DNA from: Sphingobacteriales bacterium
Lineage (GTDB): Bacteria > Bacteroidota > Bacteroidia > Chitinophagales > Chitinophagaceae
Direction of reading: 5' to 3'
Assembly: GCA_004144175.1 (NCBI GenBank)
Contig: SEFT01000011.1
Coordinates: forward strand, 55,405-119,404
Length of the DNA stretch: 64,000 bases
In this document: positions 23,384 to 40,484 of the stretch, piece by piece
How the letters are laid out: each line of letters opens with the position of its first letter
Numbering within the stretch: position 1 is the stretch's first letter
Made by a program: the position numbers and the translations under genes
Notes under the pieces: model-generated
Told to the model about the DNA's origin: nothing
The model's input: only the letters and a program-made list of their open reading frames with translations
The model's database searches: none

Positions 23384-23386
23384 GTT

Positions 23387-25064: not shown

Positions 25065-25634
25065 ATGCGGAATACGATTTATAAGCTTACGGAGTATGAC
25101 CAGGCTACCCCCGGCGTACAGAACATATATGATGAGTCGAAAAGGATGCTGGGCCTGCCCTTTGTGCTCAACTGGATAAAATGCCAGGGCAGCAACGAAG
25201 ACCTGTTGACGGGTAATTGGACAAAGCTAAAGAACACGCTCATAGTAGGCAAAGTACCCAATATCCTCAAACAGCTTATTATTTACAATGTTTCGGCTAA
25301 GAAGGGATGCGACTATTGCAGCCAGGCCCATGGAATATTTGCCAATATGATGGGCAAATCGATGCATAGCGACACTGATTTTAAGATAACGGAGAACCTG
25401 GAAACAGAACTGGTACCTAAAAGCTACCGTACTGCCATCAGGGTTGTTACCAATGCAGCGCTGGCGCCTGCAAGCATTACCGACAAGGATGTGGAAGACT
25501 TGCAAGATGCAGGATTCTCAGAAGGAGAGATAACAGAGCTACTTGCACAGGCCGACCTTGTGAACATGCTCAATACTATAGCCGATATATCGGGCATTAA
25601 AATTGACAGCGAACTGCTGGAAATGGCCAACTAA
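25065..25634 (+). CDS. AhpD/carboxymuconolactone-decarboxylase-like protein with CxxC
   Basis: LKQLIIYNVSAKKGCDYCSQAH core; C-terminal DVEDLQDAGFSEGEITELLA..DLVNMLNTIAD. Confidence 0.85.
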   Translation: MRNTIYKLTEYDQATPGVQNIYDESKRMLGLPFVLNWIKCQGSNEDLLTGNWTKLKNTLIVGKVPNILKQLIIYNVSAKKGCDYCSQAHGIFANMMGKSMHSDTDFKITENLETELVPKSYRTAIRVVTNAALAPASITDKDVEDLQDAGFSEGEITELLAQADLVNMLNTIADISGIKIDSELLEMAN

Positions 25635-26488
25635 TGCCAGGCATTACAGATCATTCGGGCCCCGACATTGCGGCGCTCCGATACCGCGTTGTATATGAAG
25701 CGCTAGCAAGGCTTAGCTGCAATATCAATAAAAGCGAAGCGGTTAGTGAACTAAGGGATTGTATACACTCCGACCTCAAGTACCTATTCGACAGTGTAGC
25801 TGTACGCTTCCTGGTGACGGGTTCGCGGCAAATGAATACCTTTTCGATAGGGGCTAACGAGCGTACCGAAAAAGTATTTTCGCGCGAAGTAGAGTCTATC
25901 CGGTTTTCATTTGAAAAACAGGCTGCCGAAAGCCTGACCCCACAGCTAATAGACGGGAATGAGGCAGTTGAAAACGCTATCGGTGTATTCGTAAGTGAAG
26001 ACTTTCTGCAAAAGGTAGATGCTATTTGGGTTTTCTCCTTTGCCATACATGGCTTGTCGCTGGTGGCGTCGGTATATTCCGGGCCTGACCATAAATTTCG
26101 CAACACCGACATTGCTATCTTGAAGATCGTTTGCGAATCATTTTTGGCTAAGATATATAGCCTCGAACTGGTGCATGAGGCTGTGCTCGTACGGACCGAT
26201 CTGGAAGAAGCGGTAGTAAAAATTACCAGGCTGGTGAGTGAGCAGGAACTAATTATCCAACAACGCACCGAACAATTGCAGCTACGCAATGACCAGCTTA
26301 GCGAAATTGGCCAATTTAACGCCCATAATATACGCGAACCTCTGACACGCATATTTGGCCTGCTGGAGCTAAGCAAGATATCATCGCAGGACGAGACAAC
26401 AAATGACCTACTTCCACTGCTGTACAAATCATCGACCGACCTGGATGAAGCTGTAAAAAATGTAATTACTTTTATAGACGAAAAGTAA
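25634..26488 (+). CDS. GAF-like domain + coiled coil + histidine phosphoacceptor (HisKA), no ATPase domain
   Basis: TAATG overlap with the upstream gene; GAF-end helix KFRNTDIAILKIV; H-box NAHNIREPLTRIFGLL; ends after the second DHp helix. Confidence 0.8.
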   Translation: MPGITDHSGPDIAALRYRVVYEALARLSCNINKSEAVSELRDCIHSDLKYLFDSVAVRFLVTGSRQMNTFSIGANERTEKVFSREVESIRFSFEKQAAESLTPQLIDGNEAVENAIGVFVSEDFLQKVDAIWVFSFAIHGLSLVASVYSGPDHKFRNTDIAILKIVCESFLAKIYSLELVHEAVLVRTDLEEAVVKITRLVSEQELIIQQRTEQLQLRNDQLSEIGQFNAHNIREPLTRIFGLLELSKISSQDETTNDLLPLLYKSSTDLDEAVKNVITFIDEK

Positions 26489-26514
26489 TTGTCAGCTAGA
26501 AATATCACCACAAC

Positions 26515-26880
26515 ATGGAGGCAAGGAAAATAATGCTGGTAGATGATGAGCCCATCACCAACATGATAAACAAAAGAATGCTTCAGCACCAAAATCCTGC
26601 ACACGAAATTTTAGATTTTACGGATCCGGAAAAGGCTTCCAAAGAACTTAGCGGTATAGCGCCTGATATCATCTTCCTCGACATCAACATGCCCGTAATG
26701 AATGGCTGGCAGTTTCTCGAGGCAATGGAACGACAGCAACTACTCTACCCTGTAATAATGCTGACCAGCAGTACCAGCCAAACTGATAAAGAAAGAAGCA
26801 AGCAACACTCCAACATCAAAAAATTCCAATCTAAACCATTGAGGATCGAAGACCTGCCGACGCTGTTTGATGGTATTTAG
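26515..26880 (+). CDS. Single-domain response regulator (receiver)
   Basis: MLVDDE, IFLDINMPVMNGWQFL, MLTSS, SKP. Confidence 0.93.
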   Translation: MEARKIMLVDDEPITNMINKRMLQHQNPAHEILDFTDPEKASKELSGIAPDIIFLDINMPVMNGWQFLEAMERQQLLYPVIMLTSSTSQTDKERSKQHSNIKKFQSKPLRIEDLPTLFDGI

Positions 26881-26977
26881 TTTCACCTCATCTTTTTGTT
26901 CGATCAATAACAGGATTGATAAACGGGCACAGCTAGCGTAGAAATGAGAAAATGGAAACGATTTGCTTACGGGACCA

Positions 26978-27652
26978 CTAATTGCTTATAATGAACTCAA
27001 TAGAGTTTAAAGCCCGCATTACAGCATCCGGCGCTTGACATCTTATATCTGAAATTAAAACCTTATCACCATCGACCAGTTGCTGAAACCCTTTTTTCGT
27101 TTTGGTTGTGAAGACGGCGCCTTGCAGGCTTTCAGCATATATAGTGTTTCCCTTTCTTATTATGGCAATGGTTGCTTTGGTAACAGAAAATCTCATATCA
27201 AAATCGTAACAGGTCAACCTTGTAACTATGCCTTCTTGTGCCTGTAATACAGCCTTTGATATAACCCCACCCATTTTGCCGGCAACTGTAGCTTCAGGAT
27301 CCGGAACCTGTTTAACCCTAAACTCAGTAGTACCAAGGTGCTTTGCTGATTTTTTTTCGCTTATCGCTATCGACATCCGTCCATGCTTCTCGGGATATAT
27401 CAGGTAGCTACATTTGTCGCTACCCATTTCTACCTTGCCATTATCAACGGCTATAGTAAGTGCGTCGCATTTATAACCTTCAACGGCTATATTAATTGGG
27501 TTAGGTACACCAAGATACACGACATTCATCCTTGCGTTAGACACTACCATTCTCTGCGACTGAGCAACCAATGGCACAAAGCCCATCAAGACTGTTCCAA
27601 TAATTAAGATCTTTAGAATCCTCTTAGTAAGTGATGAAATGAGTTGCGGCAT
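26978..27652 (-). CDS. GldM-family protein with C-terminal domains only
   Basis: SNARMNVVYLGVPNPINIAVEG and EFRVKQVPDPEA resemble GldM/PorM distal domains; short signal-like N-terminus. Confidence 0.75.
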   Translation of the reverse strand: MPQLISSLTKRILKILIIGTVLMGFVPLVAQSQRMVVSNARMNVVYLGVPNPINIAVEGYKCDALTIAVDNGKVEMGSDKCSYLIYPEKHGRMSIAISEKKSAKHLGTTEFRVKQVPDPEATVAGKMGGVISKAVLQAQEGIVTRLTCYDFDMRFSVTKATIAIIRKGNTIYAESLQGAVFTTKTKKGFQQLVDGDKVLISDIRCQAPDAVMRALNSIEFIISN

Positions 27653-27764
27653 ATAAATAAAGTTACAAGTAGCTTCTCGATTTACGTATAGGAGACACCT
27701 CCTAATATAGACTTGCACTTGAAACGTTGTAAATAACTCATTGAAAATCTTATTTTTGGGCACT

Positions 27765-28445
27765 ATGCAGAATAACACGACAGACATTGATGAAGCGGTG
27801 GCTATCATCGAGCGCATATCTGTGGTGCCGGTGATACTGGAGATCGTATGCTATGTAACGGGCATGGGCTTCGCTGCCGTAGCACGCGTAACACAAGACA
27901 GGTGGATAGCCTGTGATGTACGCGACCTGATATGCTTCGGCCTGAAGCGGGGTGGCGAGTTAAAAATAGACACTACGCTGTGTAATGAGATCCGCGATAG
28001 CCGTACCGCCATCATTATAGACCATGTGGTGAATGATGCTGAGTACTGCGGCCACCACACGCCGGCTACTTATGGGCTCCAAAGCTATATATCTGTACCT
28101 ATTATCCTTGCTGATAACGATTTTTTTGGTACGCTTTGCGCCATTGACCCTAATCCCGCCAAACTAAAGAACAGCGCTATACCTGAGCTATTCAGCGCAT
28201 ATGCAGATCTTATAGCCTTCCTGATAGATGCAGTACGGCTGAACCCCGGTGCTGCAACGCAACTGCGCCAGCGTGCTGTAATGTCGCTGAGGGCACATCT
28301 TGTGAACACTACCGGCCATACAATGGAGCGCCATACCCATAACGGCAACAATGGCGAAGTATCAAGCGTACCGCTCGATGAGGTAATAACTAAGGCTGTG
28401 GCAGATGTAAGAGCCCTATCGAAATCTTTGAGCGCTGCGATATAA
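27765..28445 (+). CDS. Stand-alone GAF domain protein
   Basis: TGMGFAAVARVTQDRWIAC, TTLCNEIR, HHTPATYGLQSYISVPI, FFGTLCAIDP; no kinase core follows. Confidence 0.85.
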   Translation: MQNNTTDIDEAVAIIERISVVPVILEIVCYVTGMGFAAVARVTQDRWIACDVRDLICFGLKRGGELKIDTTLCNEIRDSRTAIIIDHVVNDAEYCGHHTPATYGLQSYISVPIILADNDFFGTLCAIDPNPAKLKNSAIPELFSAYADLIAFLIDAVRLNPGAATQLRQRAVMSLRAHLVNTTGHTMERHTHNGNNGEVSSVPLDEVITKAVADVRALSKSLSAAI

Positions 28446-28976
28446 CTACTCTACCGGACCAACTTCCAGCCGTGTAAAATCAACCGGAACAACCAGCAGC
28501 ATTAAAGCATAAATTAAATAGGACAAAACGATCATCATTGGGTAACGCATAAAGAAGGTGCCAATAAATTGCAGCCGTTCTTCGAATGACGAAAGAAAGA
28601 ACAACAGTATAATGGCAATTATAATCGGTAGCAGATACAGACTACATAGAGCTAATTGCTCACCTTCATAAATGGCGTAGTAAGTGTACAATGTATCCAG
28701 CCAGGCCCACTCTCCATCAAGTTCGTACCCTATAATTTCTTTGTTCAAAAAGGTGTAGTAGATTATAGCTGTAAATGTTGCTGCATTAAAAGCGGTTAGG
28801 ATCAACATGATCTGCCTGTGCTTCTTACGCCACACTCCAGGCGAATCGCTTGCCCGAATAAGGGCCGACAGTGGCCAAAGTACCAGCATTAGTATACCCA
28901 GCAGCAGATGATAATCGTAAGGTGCAGTTAGTATATCACCCGGTTCCGGGCCAGGGCCGTTTTGTAACAGTAACAT
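28446..28976 (-). CDS. Hypothetical four-TM membrane protein
   Basis: 176-aa ORF with four hydrophobic segments; its stop abuts the GAF gene stop. Confidence 0.65.
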   Translation of the reverse strand: MLLLQNGPGPEPGDILTAPYDYHLLLGILMLVLWPLSALIRASDSPGVWRKKHRQIMLILTAFNAATFTAIIYYTFLNKEIIGYELDGEWAWLDTLYTYYAIYEGEQLALCSLYLLPIIIAIILLFFLSSFEERLQFIGTFFMRYPMMIVLSYLIYALMLLVVPVDFTRLEVGPVE

Positions 28977-29003
28977 AACAGGGCTAAGCGTTGCCGATAC
29001 AGA

Positions 29004-29018
29004 ACAAGTTATGTGCCA
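29004..29018 (-). promoter_or_regulatory. Sigma-54-like -24/-12 element
   Basis: TGGCACATAACTTGT on the minus strand, 28 nt upstream of the membrane protein ATG. Confidence 0.4.
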
Positions 29019-29167
29019 AATAAGTAACGATACTCAATAGAATCCAACCCTTAAAGGCCTCTTGCAATAAGGGCATGTGTGCAGACCGAATTATTATAAG
29101 CAGCATAATTTACACAGGCATTTGCCCGTATAAATCATGCTGCCAGTATTATTTATAATGAACTAAA

Positions 29168-30190
29168 CTACGGATTACCGGCACCGCCTGATGCACCATA
29201 TATTTGCCCGGTAGAGAAGCTTGCATCATTGGCAGCCAGTTGCACATAGATAGACGCCAACTCAGCGGGCTGCCCCGGTCTGCCCAGCGGTGTATCTCCG
29301 CCAAACTTCTGAAGCTTTTCTTGTGTAGCGCCGCCGCTTACCTGTAATGGGGTCCATATAGGGCCGGGCGCTACTCCATTTACGCGGATACCTTTTGGCC
29401 CCAGGCCTTTAGCCAACGACTTTACATAGTTGGCATTGGCAGCCTTGGTTTGTGCATAGTCGAACAGTTCGTACGACGGATCGTAGGCTTGCTCAGATGC
29501 TGTTATAATAACCGACGAACCGGGCTTCAGATGAGGCATGGCGGCCTTAGTTATCCAAAATGGCGCATAGACGTTTGTCTTCATGGTCCAGTCAAATTGC
29601 TCGGTGGTTATCTCGTCGAAAGAAGCGTGTGTTTGCTGGCGTGCAGCATTATTTACCAATATATCGAGTCCACCCAAAGCGGCTGCAGCATCGGCCACCA
29701 GCTTTTTGCAGAAAGCCTCATCGCGCAGGTCTCCGGGTATGGCTACTGCCTTACGGCCTGCGGCTTTTATCAGCGCTACCACTTCCTGTGCATCCGGTTC
29801 TTCGGTTGGGTAATAGTTGATGGCCACATCTGCGCCTTCGCGTGCATAGGCAATGGCCGCCGCCCTGCCCATACCCGAATCGCCGCCTGTAATCAATGCC
29901 TTGCGGCCGCGCAGCCTTCCCGATCCTTTATAGCTGGTTTCGCCATGGTCGGGGCGCGGATTCATCTTGCTGGCAAGGCCCGGCCATGGTTGCGACTGGG
30001 CTTGAAATGGCGGGCGCGGATATTTGGTAGTGGGGTCGGTAAGGTCAGGAGCGCCTATGTCAGTTTTCGTCTTATCCTGCGCTACGGAGATGATGGGTTG
30101 CACCGCAGCCAAGGCCAGCGAAGCGCCAATACCGGCCAGCACCTTGCGGCGGCTGACCCTGTTGTTTTCACTCAAGGTTTCGTCGATCAT
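29168..30190 (-). CDS. YghA-like SDR oxidoreductase with twin-arginine leader
   Basis: ALITGGDSGMGRA, LVNNAA, YAQTK, NGVAPGPIWTPL; N-terminal VSRRKVLAGIGASLALAA. Confidence 0.9.
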   Translation of the reverse strand: MIDETLSENNRVSRRKVLAGIGASLALAAVQPIISVAQDKTKTDIGAPDLTDPTTKYPRPPFQAQSQPWPGLASKMNPRPDHGETSYKGSGRLRGRKALITGGDSGMGRAAAIAYAREGADVAINYYPTEEPDAQEVVALIKAAGRKAVAIPGDLRDEAFCKKLVADAAAALGGLDILVNNAARQQTHASFDEITTEQFDWTMKTNVYAPFWITKAAMPHLKPGSSVIITASEQAYDPSYELFDYAQTKAANANYVKSLAKGLGPKGIRVNGVAPGPIWTPLQVSGGATQEKLQKFGGDTPLGRPGQPAELASIYVQLAANDASFSTGQIYGASGGAGNP

Positions 30191-30350
30191 ATGTTTGTTT
30201 GGTTGGGAGATATGAAGTATGATGACAAAAAAGGCAAAGAAACCATGCCAGTTGCAGCAGCCCTTGGCCTTGCTCACGAACCTAGCGATACAACAAGGAT
30301 TTATTATCTATCTTTCTGCGCCGAAAATTACCCGGCATCCAATAACAAGT

Positions 30351-30614
30351 ATGAGCGCTGAGAATAAAGCCTTCTGGAAACAATACGACTTGCTGATCGC
30401 GTCACTGGAATCAAATGGGTTTACTGATATTCAACAAGAAGTAGCCGCGGCGAAGCTATTGGTAAATGGCTACCCCAATGGCTGGCAACAACTATTGGAT
30501 GAACTGAAGCGCATAGAACTTACTCATCGCGACCGTTTTATTCAGGAGCAAAGAATTATCTTTTTCTACCTCATTTCTCAACTGAAGAACAGCCTCGAGC
30601 CGGGTAGGTATTGA
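30351..30614 (+). CDS. Small hypothetical protein
   Basis: 87-aa helical ORF from MSAENK; the upstream extension in the track looks non-coding. Confidence 0.55.
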   Translation: MSAENKAFWKQYDLLIASLESNGFTDIQQEVAAAKLLVNGYPNGWQQLLDELKRIELTHRDRFIQEQRIIFFYLISQLKNSLEPGRY

Positions 30615-30660
30615 GTATTGAGAAGGCACAAAGCGAAATATGGTAACTAAGTCAGCTTCA

Positions 30661-31140
30661 CTACAAAAAACGAAAGCGGTTGATCTGCACAACAGGATTT
30701 GCAATCTTTACCATTTCTTGAAACCTGCTGAATACCTGTCGGTCAAGCGGTTGGAAGCTCACACTTTTTGAGTTATTCATTTCGTCCAGATACACCAGCT
30801 CCCACAGACGGATATATCCTAGCCTAATAGATGAGAGCCTGATAATATGTATAGAGCTTAAGGCAACCTTCTCTTCTCCATTTTTACTTTTTACGTACAG
30901 AAAGCCCGCATCGAATTCAAGAACCTTACTACGATCGAACACGATATAGAAGACAATATGCAGACAACAGAAAAATAGTACTATCAAATGATCAGTCATA
31001 CTCTCGACATTATCGCGGCCAGAAAAACCATCTTGTGCCAATGAGTATAAAAAAAATACCGCCAGTGCCAGTACGATAAACCTCATCCATCGCATGTTGG
31101 CTGACAGTCGCTGCCTTGCTGAAAATATTGTATCGGTCAT
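30661..31140 (-). CDS. Hypothetical protein, two TM helices plus PH-like beta domain
   Basis: Two hydrophobic helices then VLEFDAGFLYVK..GEEKVALSSI. Confidence 0.65.
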   Translation of the reverse strand: MTDTIFSARQRLSANMRWMRFIVLALAVFFLYSLAQDGFSGRDNVESMTDHLIVLFFCCLHIVFYIVFDRSKVLEFDAGFLYVKSKNGEEKVALSSIHIIRLSSIRLGYIRLWELVYLDEMNNSKSVSFQPLDRQVFSRFQEMVKIANPVVQINRFRFL

Positions 31141-31153
31141 CTATTGAATACGC

Positions 31154-31830
31154 TTAGCCCTTCTTGCCCAAGCCCGCACCCAGTGTGTACCTAACACCAA
31201 GCGACACCGGAACAAACTTATCGCGAGCCTCGAAGAAATAATCGCTGCTTGCAGCACGCAGCCAGCGCATACCTACTTCGGCATTAAGCCCTAGCTTGTT
31301 GTTTAGCTGGTATACGTAGCCGGCCTGCAGACCAAGCGATATCGCATTATAAGAGGCAATGGCCATCCTGGAGCCTACGATTGTACTTGGGCCGAATGCA
31401 GGGCCCAGCTGTTTAGACGTCACGAACCTAACATCCGAATTGCCTTTGAATCCTTTCATGTAGCCCAGAGATGCCCCGCCATACAGATAGTTTTTGGTAA
31501 CCCGATTTTGTAGTTGATAATAGCGGCTGGCATTATATAAGGCGATGCAATGATATACACCAGCCCATTAGTATTGGTTTGAGACTCATCGGTATATATG
31601 GCATCAGACGAACCTAACGTGATCTTGCCGACATCGACTGTAAAGCCTAATTGCAAGTGCCTGCCTAAATGTGTCAGTACTCTTGCCGATGCATAGCCAT
31701 TGACGCGGCCTTTGACGGTGCCATAGGCGGAAGGCAAATTATATTGTGTACCGGCATTGAGGCCAAGTTGTAGCTTTTGCGCGGTGGCTGCTATTGGCAG
31801 CGCCAGAAGAATTGTCAGGAAGCGTTTCAT
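31154..31830 (-). pseudogene. Outer-membrane beta-barrel protein split by a frameshift
   Basis: Track ORFs 31456-31830 and 31154-31459 join as ...GLPKNYLYGGASLGYMKGFK... if one base is added in the A5 run (T at 31491-31495); signal peptide and alternating beta strands. Confidence 0.75.
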
Positions 31831-31955
31831 AGGTTGTTATTTAAGTATGTACTAAACTACCAAAAAGACGGTAAAAAGAAAACCTGCGTTGGGTTATAAA
31901 AATATAGAGCTTACATCAAAACATATTACCTTACAGACCCCAGCATAACCAACAT

Positions 31956-32510
31956 ATGAGAAAGCTTATCTACGGCATCAACCTGACCCTGGACGGATGC
32001 TGCGACCATACCAAGGGCAACGGCTCACCCGATGTACACGAGTACTTTAGGGAGCTGATGGAGGGCACCGATCTATTGCTATATGGCCGTAAAACCTATG
32101 AGCTGATGGTACCCTTCTGGCCCGAGGTAGCTAAGACACAGTCGCTGGACGAAACAGGCAATGCCTTTGCAAAAACCTTCGATGCTATCGACCGCGTTGT
32201 GGTGTCGCGGACGCTGAAACAGGTAGATGATGCGCGTACCACCATGCTACAGGGCGACCTGAAAGAAGAGGTACTAAAACTAAAAGAGCAACCCGGCAAA
32301 GCCATATCTACCGGCGGGGTTGAACTACCCGCACAGCTGATAGAACTGGGGCTGGTAGATGAGTTCCATATTGTAATACAGCCGGTGATCGTAGGTGAAG
32401 GGCGGCGATTGTTTACCGAAATGCATATGCCCGAAAAGCTCGGCCTGAAGCTGATGGCAACAAAGACATTGCCCAGCGGGTCTGTGGCGTTGAGGTATGT
32501 TAAGGGATAA
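31956..32510 (+). CDS. Dihydrofolate reductase / RibD C-terminal family protein
   Basis: NLTLDGCCDH, LLYGRKTYELM, LGLVDEFHIVIQPVIVGEG. Confidence 0.9.
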   Translation: MRKLIYGINLTLDGCCDHTKGNGSPDVHEYFRELMEGTDLLLYGRKTYELMVPFWPEVAKTQSLDETGNAFAKTFDAIDRVVVSRTLKQVDDARTTMLQGDLKEEVLKLKEQPGKAISTGGVELPAQLIELGLVDEFHIVIQPVIVGEGRRLFTEMHMPEKLGLKLMATKTLPSGSVALRYVKG

Positions 32511-32517
32511 TCAGTGG

Positions 32518-32994
32518 CTAACTTCCTTCGGGTATATACGGCTTGCCCGGTACGCCCCAGCCCCATTTCGGCATCGGTTCGTTCTCGCTTAGATTAACGT
32601 CGTCGAGGTTGGAGTTGAGTACGGCTATTCTTGTACCCCACTCGATATAGGCTACAAATGCAGAGCGAAACTCAGGATCGTCGGGCAGGTCTATCTCATC
32701 GGCTGACTGTGTGAGCAGCTGCACCCAGCGTGCGCGGTGCGCTTCGGTCAGGTGCTTGCCGAGGTGCTTCAATATCATTTTGTAGTGGCTACCATCTTGC
32801 TCCGAATACAGGGTGGGTCCGCCAAATACCTCGGCTACAAAATGGCTTACGTGCCTCTGGTGTTCAGGCGACATATGCTTAAATACAGGCTCCAGCAAGT
32901 CATCTGCCAGTACCTTTTTATAAAAATTATCCATCAACTTGTCGAACACCGGCATGCCGCCGGCCCATTCGTATAGCGTAGGTATTGTTTCCAT
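32518..32994 (-). CDS. Group II truncated haemoglobin
   Basis: TLYEWAGG, FY..V..D..L.PVF, EVFGGP..Y, proximal KH, RWVQL. Confidence 0.9.
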   Translation of the reverse strand: METIPTLYEWAGGMPVFDKLMDNFYKKVLADDLLEPVFKHMSPEHQRHVSHFVAEVFGGPTLYSEQDGSHYKMILKHLGKHLTEAHRARWVQLLTQSADEIDLPDDPEFRSAFVAYIEWGTRIAVLNSNLDDVNLSENEPMPKWGWGVPGKPYIPEGS

Positions 32995-33150
32995 AGATTG
33001 TTGTGGCTAAGGTAAGCGTTGACCATGACTTATGGTATTAATTATGCTGATGTCGGTGTTTGCAAAAGGGCTTATGCTCGTAAAATTTTTTTTGCTGCTA
33101 CAGTGTGTGGATGCTGATTGTATGATGTGCATATGGTAGTGGTCGACGGT

Positions 33151-33210
33151 GCTGTAAAGCTGCTGTAATGCTGCTGTTGTGCTGCTGTTGTGCTGCTGCC
33201 AGGCTGCTCT
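33151..33210. repeat. Degenerate ~11-nt tandem repeat (GTGCTGCTGTT-like)
   Basis: gctgtaaa gctgctgtaa tgctgctgtt gtgctgctgtt gtgctgctgcc aggctgctct. Confidence 0.5.
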
Positions 33211-33716
33211 CGCGTAGCCGTTGTGCTGGCGTGACGCAGCTGCAAGGCTGTTGCGATGCTGGCGCAAGGCTGCTGAAAGAGGGTGTGTAAATCGCCTTGA
33301 TCACGAAAGAAAGTTTAGTTTGCAGGTGCTGTAGGGTCATGACTGCAATATAAATACTTGTGGGATGGAATGCCGTTTTGCACACCCTGATAGTTTGTGG
33401 ATTTTTTGGGAACTGCAAGATGCTATAAATAGATAAAGGACTGCTGTTATGCAGTCCTTTACTTTCGATCATGAAAATCCAATTACCACTTTCTCTCTAT
33501 CTCACTTTCACAAAACGCTTATTCACAAATCCTATCTCCCAAACCAATCACCTCTCTTTCACTTCTCACAATCGCTCACACCAGGTATGTAAAAACTACC
33601 GTGCCAAGGCTGGAACCAACTATGGCAGCGGCTGCTAGGCTTTTGTATGTGAAGCGTATATTTTTAGCTCCATCGATTAAATAAGTTGAGCATCTTGCCA
33701 ATAAATGCATCATGGC

Positions 33717-35504
33717 CTAGGATGCTATTGAATACGTTTTTTCTACAATCTTATGTATAATACAATCTAGCTCAAGAGCATTAGTTTGAAGCGTATCGAG
33801 ATATGGCGTCGTTTCATGGCTGTTAAGCGATGTATTGATAAGTATATCTACAATACCCATGATATTGGCTAATGGCCTTCTTACTTCGTGAGATTGTATA
33901 AATGCAATCTCCCTCAATACACGGTTCTGCTCTGTAAGATGAGCCATAGCTTTCTTCAGCTTTCTTTGGTTTTTCTTTCGCTCTGTAACATCCCGCGAGT
34001 TGACTATGATTCCTTGTACCACCTCGTCATTCAGCATATTGGTACATATGGTTTCAACCCAGTGCCATCTATTGTCTCTGTCCTTAAATCTGAATTCGTG
34101 TAGCTTCAGCTCCTTGCTGGTAGCTACGTTGGCCAGTTCTGATTTTGCTCTTTCGATATCCTCCTTATGAATAAAATCCAGCGCGTTTTGTCCTAGTAGT
34201 TCTTCGCTGGTATAACCAAATATCTGCGACACGTTGTTGCTGATAAACTTGTAGGCACCTCTTTCGTCAATAATGCCTACCATATCTGCGCCCTTGTTAA
34301 TTAGCGCCATAAACCGGCGTTCGGCTAGTTCTCTCTTCAACTCGGCCTCGTGTAAAGCGGTAGCATCTCTGCCAACGCAAAACATAGTACGCTTCTCAAC
34401 ATCCCACCTTGCCGACCATAAAATATGAACCAACCGGCCGTCTTTTGCCACGAGTCTGTTTTTGAAAGCTGTTATGTTGTTTCCGTCCGTGATGCCGGCT
34501 GTAACGTCTTCTGTTTTCAGCAAATCGGCTGGCGATACAAAATTGGAAAAATGCCTGCCTTCCATATCTTCCGGCTCAAGCCCCAGTATTGAAATCACCG
34601 AGTCGCTTACTGAGGTATAGTAACCGTTGGCATCTACAGTTGCAATGATATCGGGCGACGAATGAATAATGGCTTGCAACTTGTCCGTACTTTCCTGAAG
34701 CAACCTTTCCTTTTCCTCCAGTATTCTGTTCTTTTCCTCTATCTCTTTCATCTGCATCTTAACTGCAGTTATATCGTGTGAGTGCCCGGCTACGCCTACT
34801 ATTTGCATATCGGCACCGTCCTTTATCGGGTTCAGGGTAAGCTCGATGTAATGCGCCTGCCCAGACGCTGGAAACTCAATGAAGTCTTCCTGCACTACGG
34901 TTTCTCCGTTCAAAGCTCTGCCGTAGAGTTCCCGCCATTTTTGCGATTCGGCCTCATCCCCCAGATCAAGCACGCAGTCGCCAATATCAATCGATAAGCC
35001 TGTGTATAAACGTATATTTTGCCGGAAAGTACTGTTTGCGGCAAGCAGACAGCCGTTGCGGTCGATGGACCAAATTGCATCGGACGAGGCATTAATGATC
35101 GCTTCCTGTTGGTTCTTCTGATAGCTGACTGTTTCACTTAGCTTTTTTCTAGCTGTCATATCTTCCAGGAAAATAGACAGGCCATTTTCTGAGGGATATG
35201 TCTTAACTCGTACCCAAAGATCATTCGGCTCGTAGTACTGTTCCAGCTCTGTAGCAACATTTTGCTGCTTCGAACGCAGATATTCGCAGTGAAAAATAGT
35301 ATTTACTGCTTCGGGGAATACTTGCCATAGGTTATGGCCAAGTACTTCCGCTTTTGGTCGATTCAGAATTTTTTCTGCTGCACTGTTCCAGTAAAGTACT
35401 TTCCAGTCGTTATCTACATAACAGAACCCGTCAGAAATAGATTCCAATATGCTCTCTACCACCGACATACCCGATGGTTGGTTATCCAAATATCCCTTTA
35501 TCAT
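33717..35504 (-). CDS. Multi-PAS protein ending in HisKA, no ATPase domain
   Basis: About four PAS repeats (YWNSAAE, AANSTF, SVSDSV, FISNNV); H-box QSHEVRRPLANIMG; stop about 45 aa later. Confidence 0.9.
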   Translation of the reverse strand: MIKGYLDNQPSGMSVVESILESISDGFCYVDNDWKVLYWNSAAEKILNRPKAEVLGHNLWQVFPEAVNTIFHCEYLRSKQQNVATELEQYYEPNDLWVRVKTYPSENGLSIFLEDMTARKKLSETVSYQKNQQEAIINASSDAIWSIDRNGCLLAANSTFRQNIRLYTGLSIDIGDCVLDLGDEAESQKWRELYGRALNGETVVQEDFIEFPASGQAHYIELTLNPIKDGADMQIVGVAGHSHDITAVKMQMKEIEEKNRILEEKERLLQESTDKLQAIIHSSPDIIATVDANGYYTSVSDSVISILGLEPEDMEGRHFSNFVSPADLLKTEDVTAGITDGNNITAFKNRLVAKDGRLVHILWSARWDVEKRTMFCVGRDATALHEAELKRELAERRFMALINKGADMVGIIDERGAYKFISNNVSQIFGYTSEELLGQNALDFIHKEDIERAKSELANVATSKELKLHEFRFKDRDNRWHWVETICTNMLNDEVVQGIIVNSRDVTERKKNQRKLKKAMAHLTEQNRVLREIAFIQSHEVRRPLANIMGIVDILINTSLNSHETTPYLDTLQTNALELDCIIHKIVEKTYSIAS

Positions 35505-35602
35505 TATATGGCCGTTTATAGTTTGTCTGAAGAAAAAACTAGCTCATGATATAAATCATTGAAAATCTGTTATTTATCACTTGTTTGTTGAATCCCTTAA
35601 TG

Positions 35603-35610
35603 TAAATTTG
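35603..35610 (+). promoter_or_regulatory. -7 promoter element of the receiver gene
   Basis: TAAATTTG. Confidence 0.5.
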
Positions 35611-35669
35611 CAAAATAGTTTGAACATTTTCCATAGTAGAAGGGACTTATTTTTAAAACATCATATAAA

Positions 35670-36053
35670 ATGGAATTTATTGTAATAGACGACGACAGAA
35701 CTGTTCAAATGCTTAGTAAAGCCATCATATTGAGAGTAGCTACCGGTGCCAACGTTGTGCCCTTTTTAGACCCTTATGATGGGCTAGAATACATCAATAA
35801 AGAGCTCTCAACAACTACGCGAAAATGCATCGTGCTGCTGGATATCAATATGCCGGGAATGAATGGATGGGAACTACTGCAAAAGATAAACAGCGACGTG
35901 CTAGCAAAGCAACATTATATCTATATATACTCCTCCTCTATCGACCAGAAAGATAAGCAACGGGCAGACGAACATGCAGGAGTAGCTGGCTTTATAGAAA
36001 AACCCCTAACGCTGGATAAAGTGCAGTTGCTGCTTCAAACTGCGGCTCAATAG
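35670..36053 (+). CDS. Single-domain response regulator (receiver)
   Basis: VIDDD, LLDINMPGMNGWELL, YSSS, IEKPL. Confidence 0.93.
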   Translation: MEFIVIDDDRTVQMLSKAIILRVATGANVVPFLDPYDGLEYINKELSTTTRKCIVLLDINMPGMNGWELLQKINSDVLAKQHYIYIYSSSIDQKDKQRADEHAGVAGFIEKPLTLDKVQLLLQTAAQ

Positions 36054-36217
36054 AGATTTGAACTATCACACCGGCTTTAGTATAAATGCAGGCGGTTGGG
36101 AGACCTATTTGCTCTCCCATGATCTAAGTCTCTCTGCGAACGACTTAAACCAGTTGGAAAGTTATATTGTTGAAAGAATACGGTAGTTGGGGAATGATAT
36201 TACCATCCATCAATCAG

Positions 36218-36247
36218 AAAAGGCAGACCTATGAGGTCTGCCTTTTT
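36218..36247. terminator. Bidirectional intrinsic terminator
   Basis: AAAAGGCAGACCT-atg-AGGTCTGCCTTTT. Confidence 0.9.
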
Positions 36248-36264
36248 ATTCAAGCAACAATATC

Positions 36265-37128
36265 TTAGTTCAACAGATCACCCAAGCCAAATGCACCCAA
36301 CATTGTTTGATGCTGTATTTGTACTGCATCATTTGAGGCTTTTACTAAATGCCCTGTAGCCGGATCGACCACCGTACGCAATGGCCTTTGTCCCTTTGGT
36401 GTGTTTATCAAATCTACAATAGCATCTGCCACATCCTGTGGGTTTGGCTTTACGGTTTCAAACAACTGTGCGAGACCTGCCCCCATTTGGCCAGGTATTT
36501 GAAGTAATGAACCATAGCCGTCATTCACACCCGGATCAGAACCCGCTTGCACTTTTCCTAAAATATCGGTAGGAAACGCGCCCGGTTCTACTACTGTTAC
36601 GTCTATTCCTAAAGATTTCACCTCATAATGTAGGCCTTCACTCAAGCCCTCCAGGCCAAACTTTGCTGCGCTGTATACAGCCATAAAAGGAAATGAAAGC
36701 CTTCCTGCACCACTGGATACGTTGACGATCAGGCCTTCCCCCTGCTTCCTCATGTGTGGGAGCGCCAATTTCATCAACCTCCAGTAGGCTACTACATGCA
36801 TATCCAGCATATCCTGCACATCCCTGGTAGTAAAGCTTTCGGTTACCCCTACCGCTCCGTAACCGGCGTTGTTTACCAACACATCGATCCTGCCTTCCTT
36901 AGCAATAATTTCGCCAAATACTTTTTGCACATTCGCCTCGTTGGTAAGCGCTACATCTACTACTGTAATGTTGTCAACTGCAGATAGTTCTTTTGCTTTG
37001 TCGCTATTCTTACCGTTTGTGTCTCTCATGGTGGCATATACCTTATGCCCCAGCGCGGCCACGCTTTTTGCGGTTAACCATCCAAAGCCACTGTTTGTCC
37101 CTGTAATCAATACAATCTTTTGAGTCAT
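36265..37128 (-). CDS. Classical SDR oxidoreductase
   Basis: LITGTNSGFG, VNNAG, YSAAK, VEPGAFPT. Confidence 0.93.
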   Translation of the reverse strand: MTQKIVLITGTNSGFGWLTAKSVAALGHKVYATMRDTNGKNSDKAKELSAVDNITVVDVALTNEANVQKVFGEIIAKEGRIDVLVNNAGYGAVGVTESFTTRDVQDMLDMHVVAYWRLMKLALPHMRKQGEGLIVNVSSGAGRLSFPFMAVYSAAKFGLEGLSEGLHYEVKSLGIDVTVVEPGAFPTDILGKVQAGSDPGVNDGYGSLLQIPGQMGAGLAQLFETVKPNPQDVADAIVDLINTPKGQRPLRTVVDPATGHLVKASNDAVQIQHQTMLGAFGLGDLLN

Positions 37129-37161
37129 TTCTGTTGTGTTTAAATTTCTAAACCAAAGTTG

Positions 37162-37180
37162 GTGACATTTTGTAACTTTG
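37162..37180. promoter_or_regulatory. Candidate HxlR operator overlapping a -7 element
   Basis: GTGAC-N5-GTAAC imperfect inverted repeat overlapping TAACTTTG (37173-37180). Confidence 0.4.
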
Positions 37181-37221
37181 AGACATAAGGTAATAGTTTA
37201 TTTTAGTCAACAATCTTTCAA

Positions 37222-37599
37222 ATGAGTAAGTTAGTGACACTAAGGAAACCAGCTGAATGTGCTACCGATAACACGATGTGTACTGCGTCGCTTAAAGCAA
37301 TTCAGGATATAATGGACATATTGGGTGGTAAATGGAAAATAGCAATCGTGACATGCCTCTGTTACAATCCCAGACGATACAGCGAACTATTAAAGCTTGT
37401 AGATGGAATTTCAGGTAAGGTATTGAGCCGTGAATTGAAAGACCTGGAGATGAATAAACTGATCGTGCGGACTGTAAAGGATACACAGCCTATAAGTGTA
37501 GAGTACGCGATAACCGAGTATGGAAATACATTCAAGGAGCTTATTCAGACAATGGCTGAATGGGGCATCAAGCACAGGAAAAAGATAATAGGGAAATAA
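37222..37599 (+). CDS. HxlR-family winged-helix regulator
   Basis: DILGGKWKIAI, ISGKVLSRELKDLE, VEYAITEYG; divergent from the SDR. Confidence 0.93.
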   Translation: MSKLVTLRKPAECATDNTMCTASLKAIQDIMDILGGKWKIAIVTCLCYNPRRYSELLKLVDGISGKVLSRELKDLEMNKLIVRTVKDTQPISVEYAITEYGNTFKELIQTMAEWGIKHRKKIIGK

Positions 37600-38084
37600 G
37601 GGGGGGTATTTCGCGTCGTTGACGCTAGATTGTCGGTAAGACAAGTAAGACATTCTTTACCCTTACTATCTACCTTGTGCTGCGCAGGCACAAGAATGCT
37701 GGGCTTCCGGCTATACTGCATTCTTGCGCCAACGGAGTTTATCTTTAGCTGCTCTCGCAACGTAGCCAGAATAATCGAGGTTCGCGTGTTATTGGCATCC
37801 AGCTTGGTTAATATTGCCTCTAGCTCTGTATTCGTTTTAATATTGCTGTTTAGCAAAGTGTCAAATCCCCTGATCTCTTGTTTTTGCTTCGATATTTCAA
37901 TGGCCTGCCAGCACTGCACGACTGCTATCATAATGCTCAATCCTATCGCAATCAGGGCGAGATCATTTTGTTTCTTTGCAGCTTGTTTCGCTTCTAATTT
38001 TTCTTCAGGCGATGGCTCCAGAGCTTTCTTCAATGCACGCCATTGTAATGGCTCATGCATACTATGTCGGTTAACTGGCTTCAT
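37545..38084 (-). CDS. Hypothetical single-TM protein, paralogue A (C-terminus probably eroded)
   Basis: HEPLQWRALKKALEPSPEEKL leader, TM, coiled coil; the last 55 nt overlap hxlR antisense. Confidence 0.6.
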   Translation of the reverse strand: MKPVNRHSMHEPLQWRALKKALEPSPEEKLEAKQAAKKQNDLALIAIGLSIMIAVVQCWQAIEISKQKQEIRGFDTLLNSNIKTNTELEAILTKLDANNTRTSIILATLREQLKINSVGARMQYSRKPSILVPAQHKVDSKGKECLTCLTDNLASTTRNTPPYFPIIFFLCLMPHSAIV

Positions 38085-38093
38085 ATCGGACGA

Positions 38094-38837
38094 TTATGGT
38101 GTCTTTGGTGACGGCAATTCGATGTTCAGTAGTGAATCAGCTTTATAAATTGCAGTTCTAATGTCGCTGCCTACGTAACCCGCCATCCTCTGATCTTCGC
38201 TGTCTTCTCGAGGAGTTGTCTCAAAATAAAAATCAAAACCGTCGATGCCAGCGATAACCCTATTCCAAAGCCAAAACAAAATACTGTTACGAATAATAAA
38301 AGGGCTTGACGATGTCGCTTGAAAATGCTTCAGCAGTTTAGAAATTGTGTTATTAAACTCGCCTGCGTTTGTCGCCAGTAATACTTCCTTCCAGTATATG
38401 ATCTGAATGTTCTGTAGATCTGCTTTAAACTTTATCAGGGATGCTCGGTACTCATCATCTCGTACATCACTATGTAGCTCTAGTTGCCGATGCATTGCGA
38501 GCGATACTCCGTCGCTTTTTTGATTGTTAGTATCAAGCTTAACAAGGATAGAGTGCAACTCGTGGTTTTGAATCACGTTACTGAGCAGCAAAGCATTTGT
38601 ATTGATCAACAATGAATCGAACCTTTTCATCATGTCTTTCTGATCCCCTAGGCGCTCGGCTTGTTCGGTCTGCCTATTAAAGACATATACGGAAATGATA
38701 ATTGAAATTACAGCTAGTGAAGTCTGCGCAATTGCCGACCACCTGGTGAACAGCTTTTCATCTGGAGATGGCTCTAGCGCTTTCTTTAGGGCACGCCAGT
38801 GTAGTGTTTCATGTTTGTGTTGCGGGGAATGTTTCAT
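38094..38837 (-). CDS. Hypothetical single-TM protein, paralogue B
   Basis: HETLHWRALKKALEPSPDEKL leader, TM, coiled coil, helical C-terminal domain. Confidence 0.7.
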   Translation of the reverse strand: MKHSPQHKHETLHWRALKKALEPSPDEKLFTRWSAIAQTSLAVISIIISVYVFNRQTEQAERLGDQKDMMKRFDSLLINTNALLLSNVIQNHELHSILVKLDTNNQKSDGVSLAMHRQLELHSDVRDDEYRASLIKFKADLQNIQIIYWKEVLLATNAGEFNNTISKLLKHFQATSSSPFIIRNSILFWLWNRVIAGIDGFDFYFETTPREDSEDQRMAGYVGSDIRTAIYKADSLLNIELPSPKTP

Positions 38838-38863
38838 AGACTATTCCAACTTTACTTATTGGC

Positions 38864-39661
38864 TCAGTCGTTGCTAGTGCCCACATAAATTATTTGCCCC
38901 TTTTCAAACATGTACCATTTTGCCATATCCGAAGCATCGCCGAACACAAATTTTTCAAGATCAGTATGTACAAATATTCTTTGGTTTTTATTCACATGAT
39001 TATCCCAGCCAACAAAATCGCATAGTTCAGCTTTCCCGTCGATTATCATAGTGTCGCTACCCTGTCTCCATCCGAAAAGTGCATTTTGTCCAGGTAAATA
39101 AACTCTAAGTGATTCCTTATTAGTCACCCTCGATTTTTCGGAAGCCGGGATTATAACGACTGGATTATACCATTCTCCTGATTTTGGGCCAATAAGGTAC
39201 CCCTTTTTACCATTTGGCATCGTTGTGATAGATATCAGGTAGTTATTAGCATCGCTCACGCCAATAGAGGTATCAACATTGAAGGTAGTTATAGAAGAAT
39301 TTGGCGAGTTGACAATATTGCTACTACCTGTTACAGTCACCGGCTGCGTGACGGCAACATTGGAAATCCCTCTTATTGTATTGCCTATAGGTTTCGAAGC
39401 CTTTGATGAGACCTTGGTTGTTCCTCCGGAATCATGAGTGGCAATAACGATTTGCCGATCATCCTTTGGATTATCCAATGAAGTTTTTGCTGGAGGAATC
39501 AGAGAACCATACTTGCTCGAGAAGCCATATTTATTCGCAATAATGATGCATACTAAAAAAATTATGATCACAACAGCTGCAGCAAGCGTCCAGTAGTAAA
39601 GTCCCGGTTTTTTTTCAATAAGCTTGGGGACATTTATTTCGTGTTTGCTGTTGTTGTCCAT
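38864..39661 (-). CDS. Hypothetical membrane-anchored protein with S/T-rich linker
   Basis: TM LAAAVVIIIFLVCIIIA, low-complexity linker, beta-rich C-terminal domain. Confidence 0.7.
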   Translation of the reverse strand: MDNNSKHEINVPKLIEKKPGLYYWTLAAAVVIIIFLVCIIIANKYGFSSKYGSLIPPAKTSLDNPKDDRQIVIATHDSGGTTKVSSKASKPIGNTIRGISNVAVTQPVTVTGSSNIVNSPNSSITTFNVDTSIGVSDANNYLISITTMPNGKKGYLIGPKSGEWYNPVVIIPASEKSRVTNKESLRVYLPGQNALFGWRQGSDTMIIDGKAELCDFVGWDNHVNKNQRIFVHTDLEKFVFGDASDMAKWYMFEKGQIIYVGTSND

Positions 39662-39664
39662 ACC

Positions 39665-39820
39665 TTACATTTTAGCTGCCTTCTTAAGCGCCTCGATAAG
39701 ATCTTGCTGTTGTTTTATTACCTCGTCTTTCTCTTTGATGAGCGCCAGCAAATGGCCTTTGGGTAGTAGCTTGTTGCGGAACAAGCAGAGAAGCAATTCA
39801 TTCGATAAAGCAATATCCAT
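39665..39820 (-). CDS. 51-aa coiled-coil ORF, possible regulator remnant
   Basis: Hand-translated MDIALSNELLLCLFRNKLLPKGHLLALIKEKDEVIKQQQDLIEALKKAAKM; stop 3 nt before the next ATG. Confidence 0.45.
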   Translation of the reverse strand: MDIALSNELLLCLFRNKLLPKGHLLALIKEKDEVIKQQQDLIEALKKAAKM

Positions 39821-39934
39821 ACTTTGGTGATATTTATTCTAAAATAGAGATAAAAGTCAGCAACACCAACAGTAAATGCATCTGCAAAAAAACAAAAAAG
39901 GCCTGAAGTAAACTTCAAGCCTTTGTAGATCTAG

Positions 39935-40008
39935 TAGCGAAGACGGGAGTTGAACCCGTGACCTCAGGGTTATGAATCCTGCGCTCTAACCATCTGAGCT
40001 ACCTCGCC
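39935..40008 (-). tRNA. tRNA-Met (CAT), elongator type, CCA not encoded
   Basis: GGCGAGGTAGCTCAGATGGTTAGAGCGCAGGATTCATAACCCTGAGGTCACGGGTTCAACTCCCGTCTTCGCTA; G1-U72 pair and no initiator features. Confidence 0.93.
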
Positions 40009-40019
40009 AAAACGGATGG

Positions 40020-40027
40020 CAAAAGTA
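40020..40027 (-). promoter_or_regulatory. -7 promoter element of tRNA-Met
   Basis: TACTTTTG on the minus strand, 11 nt before the tRNA 5' end. Confidence 0.7.
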
Positions 40028-40046
40028 GGTAAAAAGTTTAAATTTC

Positions 40047-40484
40047 CTAGCCTATGGCCAGATGATTTTTTAGATCGGTGCTGAGAACCGCTATCCGCGC
40101 GGTTTTGTAGTCGTAAGTTACCATGCCCGTCTTGGCGTGGGCAATGTCTTTCCGGCTCCCATTGCGCTCTGTGCTAATATGATAGAGCAGGTCGAATGAG
40201 CGGTCGGCTACTTCTGCGGCATATATGCATATGGTAAGCACGTCGCCATAAAACGCCTCGCCCCGGTAGGCAATCATCACATCGGCCATGATCATCCCTA
40301 CCCCACCAGCATCCAGTTCGGTATAGCCCCACTGCGATAGCAACTGCATACGGGCCTCGTGTATGATGGACAGCAGGCGGTCGTTGCCCAGGTGGTTGCC
40401 ATAGTTGATATCGGTAATGCGTACGGGTATGCTGATGGTCGCTAACGGTTTTTCGTCGGGAAACTTTATTTTTACGCGGGTCAT
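40047..40484 (-). CDS. Hotdog-fold acyl-CoA thioesterase
   Basis: VRITDINYGNHLGND, IIHEAR, AHAKTGMV. Confidence 0.9.
   Translation of the reverse strand: MTRVKIKFPDEKPLATISIPVRITDINYGNHLGNDRLLSIIHEARMQLLSQWGYTELDAGGVGMIMADVMIAYRGEAFYGDVLTICIYAAEVADRSFDLLYHISTERNGSRKDIAHAKTGMVTYDYKTARIAVLSTDLKNHLAIG

Follow-up and report, generated by a model that had tools for sequence, protein, structure and literature searches.

A constrained N-terminal peptide shared by two tandem paralogues from a rare Bacteroidia family of predicted single-pass membrane proteins

Genes and features of the locus

The window is a 64,000-nucleotide stretch of one contig from a Sphingobacteriales bacterium. Directly 3' of a tRNA-Met gene, it carries a block of four ORFs on the minus strand, the last two of which are named here orfA and orfB (Table 1). 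No Pfam domain was found in any of the four. The GC content of the block is somewhat low, at 0.40-0.45, and GC3 is 0.39-0.48 compared with a mean GC3 of 0.52 in long ORFs. The surrounding genes encode SDR, HxlR, thioesterase-like and FAH-like proteins as well as signalling proteins.

The first two ORFs of the block lie in one frame, and direct reading of the sequence finds only a TAA and one GGT codon between them. A word-indexed search of 5.8 billion protein clusters with the 265-aa ORF returned only the query itself, and its single-sequence AF2 model has a pLDDT of 38 and is confident for the TM helix only. Because the terminator-like hairpin stands right after the tRNA-Met gene, the four-ORF block would need its own promoter. 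There is no exact match to the Bacteroidota -7 box, TAnnTTTG, upstream of the block (39820-39897).

Table 1. Features of the locus, and relatives of orfA and orfB found elsewhere (positions refer to the window unless another locus is named)
Feature	Position	Strand	Remarks
HxlR-type regulator gene	37222-37599	+	Convergent; Pfam HxlR E 8e-23; 3' end overlaps the orfB tail
orfB	37545-38084	-	179 aa; slower-evolving paralogue; canonical family motif; most of the C-domain apparently lost
orfB, juxtamembrane motif ISKQKQEIRGFDTLL	37851-37895	-	Canonical family motif, from alignment with relatives
orfB, predicted TM helix	37899-37955	-	Residues 44-62; Kyte-Doolittle window 2.06
orfB, peptide block HEPLQWRALKKALEPSPEEKL	37995-38057	-	Residues 10-30; core 38007-38042
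orfA	38094-38837	-	247 aa; putative full-length, fast-evolving family member; best coding score of six frames; N-terminal extension, TM, drifted juxtamembrane motif, helical stalk, C-terminal alpha domain
orfA, juxtamembrane motif LGDQKDMMKRFDSLL	38607-38651	-	Drifted form of the family motif, from alignments
orfA, predicted TM helix	38679-38735	-	Residues 35-53; Kyte-Doolittle 19-residue window 2.06
orfA, peptide block HETLHWRALKKALEPSPDEKL	38751-38813	-	Residues 9-29; WRALKKALEPSP core 38763-38798
265-aa ORF	38864-39661	-	One N-terminal TM helix; upstream of orfA, ends 26 nt before the orfA start
51-aa ORF	39665-39820	-	Coding score 0.287
Terminator-like hairpin	39897-39924	-	12 pairs and T-run; immediately after tRNA-Met
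tRNA-Met (CAT)	39934-40008	-	Edge of genus-wide conserved synteny
Family member P0003
Family member, L103	1456-2148
Family member, L105	276-977
Family member, L113	1471-2043
Family member, L102	1423-1935		Partial
Family member, L120	1474-1962	-

Coding status of the pair and constraint on the shared peptide

The products of orfA and orfB are 43% identical across 115 aa (BLASTP E 1e-25). Identity at the three codon positions is 0.50/0.66/0.32 overall and 0.81/1.00/0.48 in the 21-codon block that contains the peptide, where HETLHWRALKKALEPSPDEKL aligns with HEPLQWRALKKALEPSPEEKL. By the Nei-Gojobori method, pN is 0.40 and pS 0.89 over the whole alignment. The annotated frame has the highest coding score of the six, and neither gene has a broken frame within the homologous 115-120 codons, although synonymous sites are saturated. 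The scores themselves are low for this genome, at 0.085 and 0.156 against a genomic mean of 0.287 (sd 0.107). The main value of the analysis is methodological and for annotation: the paralogue comparison shows that two "hypothetical" ORFs without database matches are real protein-coding genes.

A 12-residue peptide, WRALKKALEPSP, occurs exactly in both proteins and lies within the extended core H-E-x-L-x-WRALKKALEPSP-[DE]-EKL. It was first noticed in a sequence-only reading of the window, and the synonymous differences that this reading listed for 6 of the 12 codons are all exactly right. The motif holds 7.0 synonymous differences in 9.3 synonymous sites (pS 0.75) and 0 non-synonymous differences in 26.7 sites. 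Outside the motif, the alignment has a pS of 0.89 and a pN of 0.48; synonymous sites are saturated in both parts. When the identity pattern is shuffled, about 0.2% of the shuffles contain an identical run of at least 12 residues (p ~0.002). In the other five frames the two copies differ or carry stops. A pN of 0 together with saturated pS shows constraint at the level of the protein, as the sequence-only reading had proposed, and not gene conversion or an RNA or DNA element. The peptide offers a clean case of a lineage-specific short segment under near-absolute constraint in a fast-evolving protein.

A rare family behind the pair

The two proteins had been described as orphans. This holds insofar as neither matches a named family, but distant relatives do exist, and a bridging search places orfA and orfB in a rare family of Bacteroidia membrane proteins that is missing from Pfam and NCBIfam. 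When 1.84 billion representatives were searched in full with a HMMER profile, only P0003 matched (E 9e-4); in pairwise comparison it is 38% identical to orfB across 88 aa (E 4e-13). The family profile matches orfB with 96% probability (hhalign, E 1.2e-9), and a combined profile of orfA and orfB with 92%. orfA alone gives no family-profile match in the juxtamembrane region. Its membership follows from its match to orfB, at E 1e-25, and from the match of the combined profile. orfA and orfB are old tandem duplicates within the family.

Members are 120-233 aa long. Their N-terminus is short and basic and leads into a TM helix. The juxtamembrane motif S-x-Q-Q-x-x-I-K-G-F-D-x-L-L comes next, then a helical stalk and finally a small alpha-helical C-domain marked by N-P-Y-L-x-K-N..L...W. 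The juxtamembrane motif of orfB aligns with ISKQKQSINGFETLL, ISKQQVDIKGFDSLL, VSQQQQSIKGFDTLL, ISHQQVEIKGLDSLL and AHQQQEIKGFDTLL in the relatives. The C-domain is not universal, since it is absent from P0003 and the G441 protein stops just past the C-domain motif. Distribution is patchy, with members in 6 of 401 genomes of the class and in 4 of 18 genomes of one genus. Searches of 21 congeneric species and of 400 genomes from the taxonomic family found neither orfA nor orfB.

The family appears to be previously undescribed. Neither Pfam nor NCBIfam nor the PDB has a match for it, and profile searches of the PDB returned coiled-coil noise only. An alignment of orfA, orfB and P0003 gave 0 confirmed matches in metagenome and viral contigs, and a literature search by genus name turned up nothing relevant. 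In the word-indexed search of 5.8 billion protein clusters, orfA and orfB matched only themselves; this search is insensitive here, since each query missed even its own paralogue.

The relatives differ from the pair in two ways. None has the WRALKKALEPSP extension, with P0003 retaining only R....L.P....KL, so that among the family members found a predicted cytoplasmic N-terminal extension of about 30 residues is carried by orfA and orfB only. The relatives are also single-copy, stand-alone genes in unrelated neighbourhoods with no conserved neighbour, whereas orfA and orfB are paired. They adjoin housekeeping genes (Y-family polymerase-like, xseAB-like, dnaK, mnmE-like and Amidase_3). As single genes with short N-termini, they suggest that neither the extension nor the pairing is needed for the basic function of the family.

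Each protein of the pair has one hydrophobic segment after the peptide, as the sequence-only reading had seen. The N-terminal side of this segment holds 7 K/R and 4 D/E in orfA and 9 K/R and 6 D/E in orfB. From this mild positive-inside bias, the family probably consists of single-pass inner-membrane proteins with the N-terminus in and the C-terminus out, and the peptide most likely lies on the cytoplasmic side. The weaker shared stretch taken earlier for a coiled coil (FD[ST]LL...EL..IL.KLD.NN) is present, and is predicted to be helical at low confidence only. An AF2 model of orfA from a 3-sequence alignment is too poor (pLDDT 46) to reveal a fold or an interface. At low confidence it runs as a helix, a break and a long helix through the TM segment. 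The short first helix covers residues 12-21 and breaks at EPSP, and local pLDDT is highest in this block. The core of the peptide is predicted to form a basic amphipathic helix ended by a Pro-Ser-Pro turn.

The two copies have diverged unevenly. They are sisters in the tree (support 99/97), with branch lengths of 2.0 for orfA and 0.57 for orfB, and core identity to other members is 16-27% for orfA and 24-37% for orfB. Outside the peptide, the pair has diverged to roughly 40% identity or less. orfB, the copy nearest the family consensus, keeps the juxtamembrane motif and appears to have lost most of the C-domain. That domain appears to be retained in orfA, where SSPFIIRNSILFWLWNRV aligns with NTYLLKSDTLNTLWVRAY (a weak match to the family profile, hhalign E 0.005, 7% probability), and the juxtamembrane motif of orfA has drifted. 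The C-termini had been called unrelated. In agreement with this, the orfB tail looks non-genic: its last 62 codons have a codon-usage score of -0.071, under the 5th percentile of genomic 60-codon segments, and it runs 55 nt into the convergent HxlR gene. Against it, the tail may hold a relic of the C-domain, RNTPPYF compared with NPYIF/SPFII, although the match is weak. Downstream of orfB, tblastn in other frames detected no significant remnant of the orfA C-domain.

Three known kinds of bitopic protein were compared with the pair. Rz/LysB i-spanins have the same type II bitopic architecture, with the TM helix at the N-terminus and a helical domain in the periplasm, but typically only a few residues precede their TM helix. 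The model TIGR03495 phage_LysB matches P0003 below threshold (E 0.053; 13.8 bits, where the cut-off is 92.75). It does not match orfA or orfB, and no holin, endolysin, o-spanin or prophage context is present. FtsL/FtsB (DivIC) are likewise small and bitopic, combine a TM helix with a helical zipper in the periplasm, and act as a heterodimer of two related subunits. P0003 matches NF049847 FtsL at E 0.029, far under the cut-off; orfA and orfB do not match, their genes lie outside any cell-division cluster, and the patchy distribution of the family is incompatible with an essential divisome role. CnrY-type anti-sigma factors (class II anti-sigma domain) resemble orfA and orfB in plan only: their cytoplasmic N-terminus is short, conserved and helical, a single TM helix follows, and the periplasmic part varies. 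No anti-sigma or sigma-70 r2/r4 Pfam match was found in orfA, orfB or 14 neighbouring ORFs. No ECF sigma gene is present among the scanned neighbours, and the nearest regulator is the convergent HxlR gene.

Explanations of the peptide

The best explanation, which we hold to be somewhat probable, is that orfA and orfB form an old tandem pair of a rare family in which the frozen peptide is a cytoplasmic contact surface and the two products form a hetero-oligomer. Both copies would have to keep this surface, and it could meet a cytoplasmic protein common to both, the other copy or the inner membrane leaflet. Degeneration after duplication would have been complementary, with orfB retaining the juxtamembrane motif and orfA the C-domain; such retention fits two subunits that act jointly, held together by their TM and stalk helices. 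A contact site on a hetero-oligomeric membrane pair is our best guess for the peptide. Topology, docking, heteromer formation and any physiological role are inferred here, the docking and heteromer ideas from two sequences. The peptide would in any case make a convenient pull-down handle for a partner.

The motif could instead serve membrane insertion or topology, or anchor the protein to the inner leaflet as an in-plane amphipathic helix, without docking to a protein. This is unlikely. The predicted helix is two-faced: W/L/L line one side and R/K/K/E the opposite side, and its hydrophobic moment is 0.58-0.60. It also sits about 10-18 residues ahead of the TM helix, with a proline turn at its end. 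However, an anchor of this kind would tolerate conservative swaps, and 12 of 12 residues are frozen. The moment also falls just under the Eisenberg "surface-seeking" line. The other members insert with short, unrelated basic N-termini, so the family needs no such helix.

Rather improbable is the possibility that one or both ORFs are non-functional, with orfB a decaying duplicate, the block an unexpressed relic and the motif a trace of past selection. With its non-genic-looking tail and the overlap with HxlR, orfB might be in decay rather than serve as a functional subunit. The low coding scores, the missing canonical promoter box, the strong terminator just upstream and the in-frame TAA that splits the upstream ORFs point the same way. 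Decay fits poorly with two frames that have stayed intact while synonymous divergence became saturated, with the lack of any non-synonymous motif change in either lineage and with the position of orfB nearest the family consensus.

The sequence-only reading had proposed that the peptide is a tag, for docking or targeting, carried by a variable family of membrane proteins in a phage-exclusion, defence or polymorphic-effector locus. We regard this as improbable. The position of the block is suggestive, since content 3' of the tRNA-Met gene differs between relatives and one congener has, at this position, genes for an excisionase-type HTH_17 protein and for a DpnII/MboI-type restriction endonuclease. 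The somewhat low GC and GC3 and the patchiness of the family also favour it. The motif itself does not behave as a portable tag. Its exact form, searched as degenerate DNA, had 0 matches in 185,579 species genomes, IMG/VR viral contigs and JGI metagenomes; a relaxed form was likewise absent from 400 genomes belonging to the taxonomic family, and no third copy was found in the genome of origin. The motif is therefore unique to this pair across these searches, an outcome that the sequence-only reading had itself, jointly with a lack of translation, counted against its proposal, and true relatives in other Bacteroidia lack it. With no occurrence elsewhere in the data searched, the peptide is better seen as a local curiosity than as a widespread tag.

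Nor does the context support a defence or effector locus. PADLOC-DB 2.0 gave no match for orfA, orfB or the 51-aa ORF, and for the 265-aa ORF a sub-significant match to PDC-M18A (E 0.0069, 13.8 bits). PHROGs, Pfam and NCBIfam returned nothing significant for orfA and orfB; the sub-threshold matches (Lectin_N, FtsL and LysB) mirror the TM-plus-helix plan. tblastn found 0 matches in 50,697 phage and 72,556 plasmid records. No integrase, toxin or secretion genes were found among the neighbouring ORFs scanned, and no hallmarks of polymorphic toxins or effector-immunity systems (Rhs, T6SS, T9SS CTD and similar) in the four ORFs or scanned neighbours. A tRNA-targeted integrative island is not supported: beyond a break in synteny at the tRNA and a modestly reduced GC there is no sign of one, with no integrase among the ORFs scanned and no att-like direct repeat of at least 14 nt involving tRNA-Met in 30000-40100. 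The relatives, as single genes beside housekeeping genes, also speak against the proposal. A further proposal has a similarly slim chance of being right, namely that the peptide is a short linear docking motif by which a bitopic heteromer recruits a specific cytoplasmic partner, and that the tRNA-adjacent four-ORF block is a new membrane-anchored sensing or phage-exclusion module derived from the undescribed family. With a general targeting signal, a defence system and an effector locus all unsupported, the wider biological impact is probably small.

That the identity reflects a nucleic-acid element (an RNA structure, a binding site or an antisense ORF) or a recent gene-conversion tract is effectively refuted: antisense ORFs do cover both N-terminal regions (37630-38148 and 38695-38877), but the antisense peptides differ at 5 positions, the antisense frame has a negative coding score, Rfam matches only the tRNA and nothing in the motif region, the motif pS is as saturated as elsewhere, which excludes recent conversion, and 7 of the 36 motif nucleotides differ, all 7 of them synonymously in the sense frame.

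The orfA and orfB membrane proteins

By sequence comparison, orfA and orfB are duplicates within a rare, undescribed family of membrane proteins, and the conserved N-terminal peptide they share is specific to their lineage. The two genes, nine bases apart, belong to a block of four ORFs that lie on one strand, 3' of a tRNA-Met gene. BLASTP aligns orfA residues 9-123 with orfB residues 10-117 (43% identity, E 1e-25). Within this alignment, the block HETLHWRALKKALEPSPDEKL of orfA is paired with HEPLQWRALKKALEPSPEEKL of orfB, and a 12-residue core is identical in both, with the same six synonymous codon differences that the sequence-only reading had listed. Each protein has a single hydrophobic segment (residues 35-53 in orfA and 44-62 in orfB) with a mildly positive N-terminal side, and the topology is predicted to be N-in/C-out.

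Positions of the block features (window) and of family members at loci in other genomes (L-handles)
Feature	Position	Strand	Remarks
tRNA-Met	39934-40008	minus	strand of the block
51-aa ORF	39665-39820	minus	upstream, tightly packed; coding score normal, 0.287
265-aa ORF	38864-39661	minus
orfA	38094-38837	minus	247 aa
orfB	37545-38084	minus	179 aa
Family member	L103:1456-2148
Family member	L105:276-977
Family member	L113:1471-2043
Family member	L120:1474-1962	minus
Family member	L102:1423-1935

Among the six possible frames, the annotated one scores best by codon usage in each of the block's four ORFs. For orfB, orfA, and the 265-aa ORF these scores are low (0.085 to 0.167, against a genomic mean of 0.287, sd 0.107). 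A pN that is low relative to pS, together with the existence of distant homologues, shows that the N-terminal 115-120 codons of orfA and orfB encode protein, and both ORFs are coding on this evidence. The final 62 codons of orfB have a coding score of -0.071, which is under the 5th percentile for 60-codon segments of this genome, and the 3' end of this tail overlaps that of a convergent HxlR gene by 55 nt (37545-37599). The C-terminal tail of orfB is probably degenerate read-on. The HxlR-type regulator gene is divergently paired with an SDR gene at 36265-37128.

A rare family in the Bacteroidia

Word-indexed protein searches found no relatives of orfA or orfB. A HMMER profile search of 1.84 billion representatives gave one weak match, the 120-aa protein P0003 (E 9e-4). 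Aligned directly with orfB, P0003 matches convincingly (38% identity over 88 aa, E 4e-13), with ISKQKQSINGFETLL opposite ISKQKQEIRGFDTLL. Queries with P0003 and then with a seven-sequence profile in 400 Bacteroidia genomes added five members (ORFs of 162-233 aa) from two further taxonomic families. Against a family profile built without the window proteins, orfB scores 96% probability (hhalign, E 1.2e-9). These comparisons place orfA and orfB in a rare Bacteroidia family and, with P0003 and the five others as distant members, the pair are not the true orphans they had been taken for.

Members of the family have a short basic N-terminus and a TM helix followed immediately by S-x-Q-Q-x-x-I-K-G-F-D-x-L-L, then a helical stalk, whose length varies, and a C-domain with N-P-Y-L-x-K-N..L...W. 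The family has no match in Pfam, NCBIfam, or PDB. Across the class, 6 of 401 genomes carry a member, and within one genus 4 of 18 do, a patchy distribution. The relatives elsewhere are single genes adjoining unrelated housekeeping genes: a Y-family polymerase-like gene, xseAB-like genes, dnaK, an mnmE-like gene, and Amidase_3. The gene for P0003 (L014:6001-6363) lies directly downstream of an Amidase_3 gene in three independent metagenome contigs (L014, L015, and L016). All three end at most ~110 bases past the gene, which points to assembly breaks at a repeat or in a variable region.

The WRALKKALEPSP extension is absent from all relatives found outside the window, and P0003 retains just R....L.P....KL of it. 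The genome itself holds no third copy of the core, even with four substitutions allowed. The pattern W-R-A-L-K-K-A-L-E-P-x-P (~46 bits by our own count, with far fewer than one chance hit expected) has no match in 185,579 species, represented by one genome each, or in IMG/VR and JGI metagenomes; the relaxed W-R-x-L-K-K-A-L-x-P-x-P has none in 400 genomes of the same taxonomic family. In the data searched, the motif is unique to the orfA/orfB pair, and this confinement does not support a widespread tag, or the tag on a variable membrane-protein family that the sequence-only reading had suggested.

Constraint on the peptide and history of the pair

The two genes are paralogues, and a maximum-likelihood tree groups orfA with orfB (support 99/97). 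Their branch lengths are very unequal (2.0 for orfA versus 0.57 for orfB), and across the core region identity to other members lies at 24-37% for orfB and only 16-27% for orfA. The canonical juxtamembrane motif is retained in orfB, which has lost most of its C-domain; in orfA the motif has drifted and now reads LGDQKDMMKRFDSLL, and the C-domain is kept, with a weak hhalign match to the family (E 0.005). Duplication with subsequent complementary degeneration would be expected to leave such a pattern, though orfB could instead be decaying. Most striking is that the N-terminal peptide has stayed unchanged even along the fast orfA branch.

Nei-Gojobori comparison of orfA with orfB gives 7.0 synonymous differences over 9.3 synonymous sites in the core (pS 0.75) and 0 non-synonymous differences over 26.7 sites; outside the core, pS is 0.89 and pN 0.48. 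The duplication is old, since synonymous sites are saturated throughout. As this saturation extends into the core, a recent gene-conversion tract is excluded as the source of its identity. At the first, second, and third codon positions, identity is 0.50/0.66/0.32 overall and 0.81/1.00/0.48 within the shared 21-codon block, the signature of protein-level selection. When the identity pattern was shuffled along the alignment, a run of at least 12 identical residues arose in ~0.2% of trials. The original observation is thus borne out and its argument for selection is sound; the constraint, on these substitution patterns, acts on the peptide itself. A nucleic-acid element behind the core identity is effectively excluded: read in either shifted sense frame or in any of the three antisense frames, the copies differ or have stops; the coding score of the antisense ORF over orfB is negative; and an Rfam scan matched the tRNA as the sole RNA element.

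Possible roles and genomic context

The peptide would lie in the cytoplasm as a contact surface that both copies must keep, and orfA and orfB may cooperate by way of their TM and stalk helices. Alternatively, the core could be an in-plane membrane-anchoring helix. It is amphipathic (hydrophobic moment 0.58-0.60). A poor AlphaFold2 model from three sequences (pLDDT 46) puts residues 12-21 in a short helix, followed by a break at EPSP and a single long helix (25-89) that passes through the TM segment. In plan, the pair resemble i-spanins, FtsL/FtsB, and short anti-sigma factors; the membership tests run for each were negative.

The organism is a member of the Chitinophagaceae and, going by what its nearest genomes are called, falls in or close to the genus Flavipsychrobacter. 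A strong terminator-like hairpin directly follows tRNA-Met. A defence or exclusion role is hinted at by genomic context alone. Synteny with same-genus species begins exactly at the tRNA and runs rightward; to its left, 20000-39930 has only scattered matches in other genomes. The 3' flank of the tRNA varies among relatives (loci L009:1-1500 and L020), with an excisionase-type HTH_17 gene and a DpnII/MboI-type restriction endonuclease in a same-genus species (G015) and an M24 peptidase in others. GC content is 0.40-0.43 at 37000-40000, against ~0.50 rightward and 0.46 for the genome. The surroundings of the block in the window yielded no integrase, att-like repeat, or phage gene, and the suggested defence or effector locus is not supported.

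The 265-aa ORF, tightly packed upstream of orfA on the same strand, has one TM helix and no relatives were found for it. It is in frame with the 51-aa ORF, with only TAA and one GGT codon between them (39659-39670, ...AAKM*GMDNN...). The two could be a nonsense-split 318-aa gene, a case of stop-codon read-through, or two coupled genes. Farther left, a 279-aa ORF (26978-27817, minus strand) matches the gliding/T9SS protein GldM over its third and fourth, C-terminal domains alone (Pfam E 1e-11 and 4e-15), and looks like a GldM-like protein that is either stand-alone or truncated.
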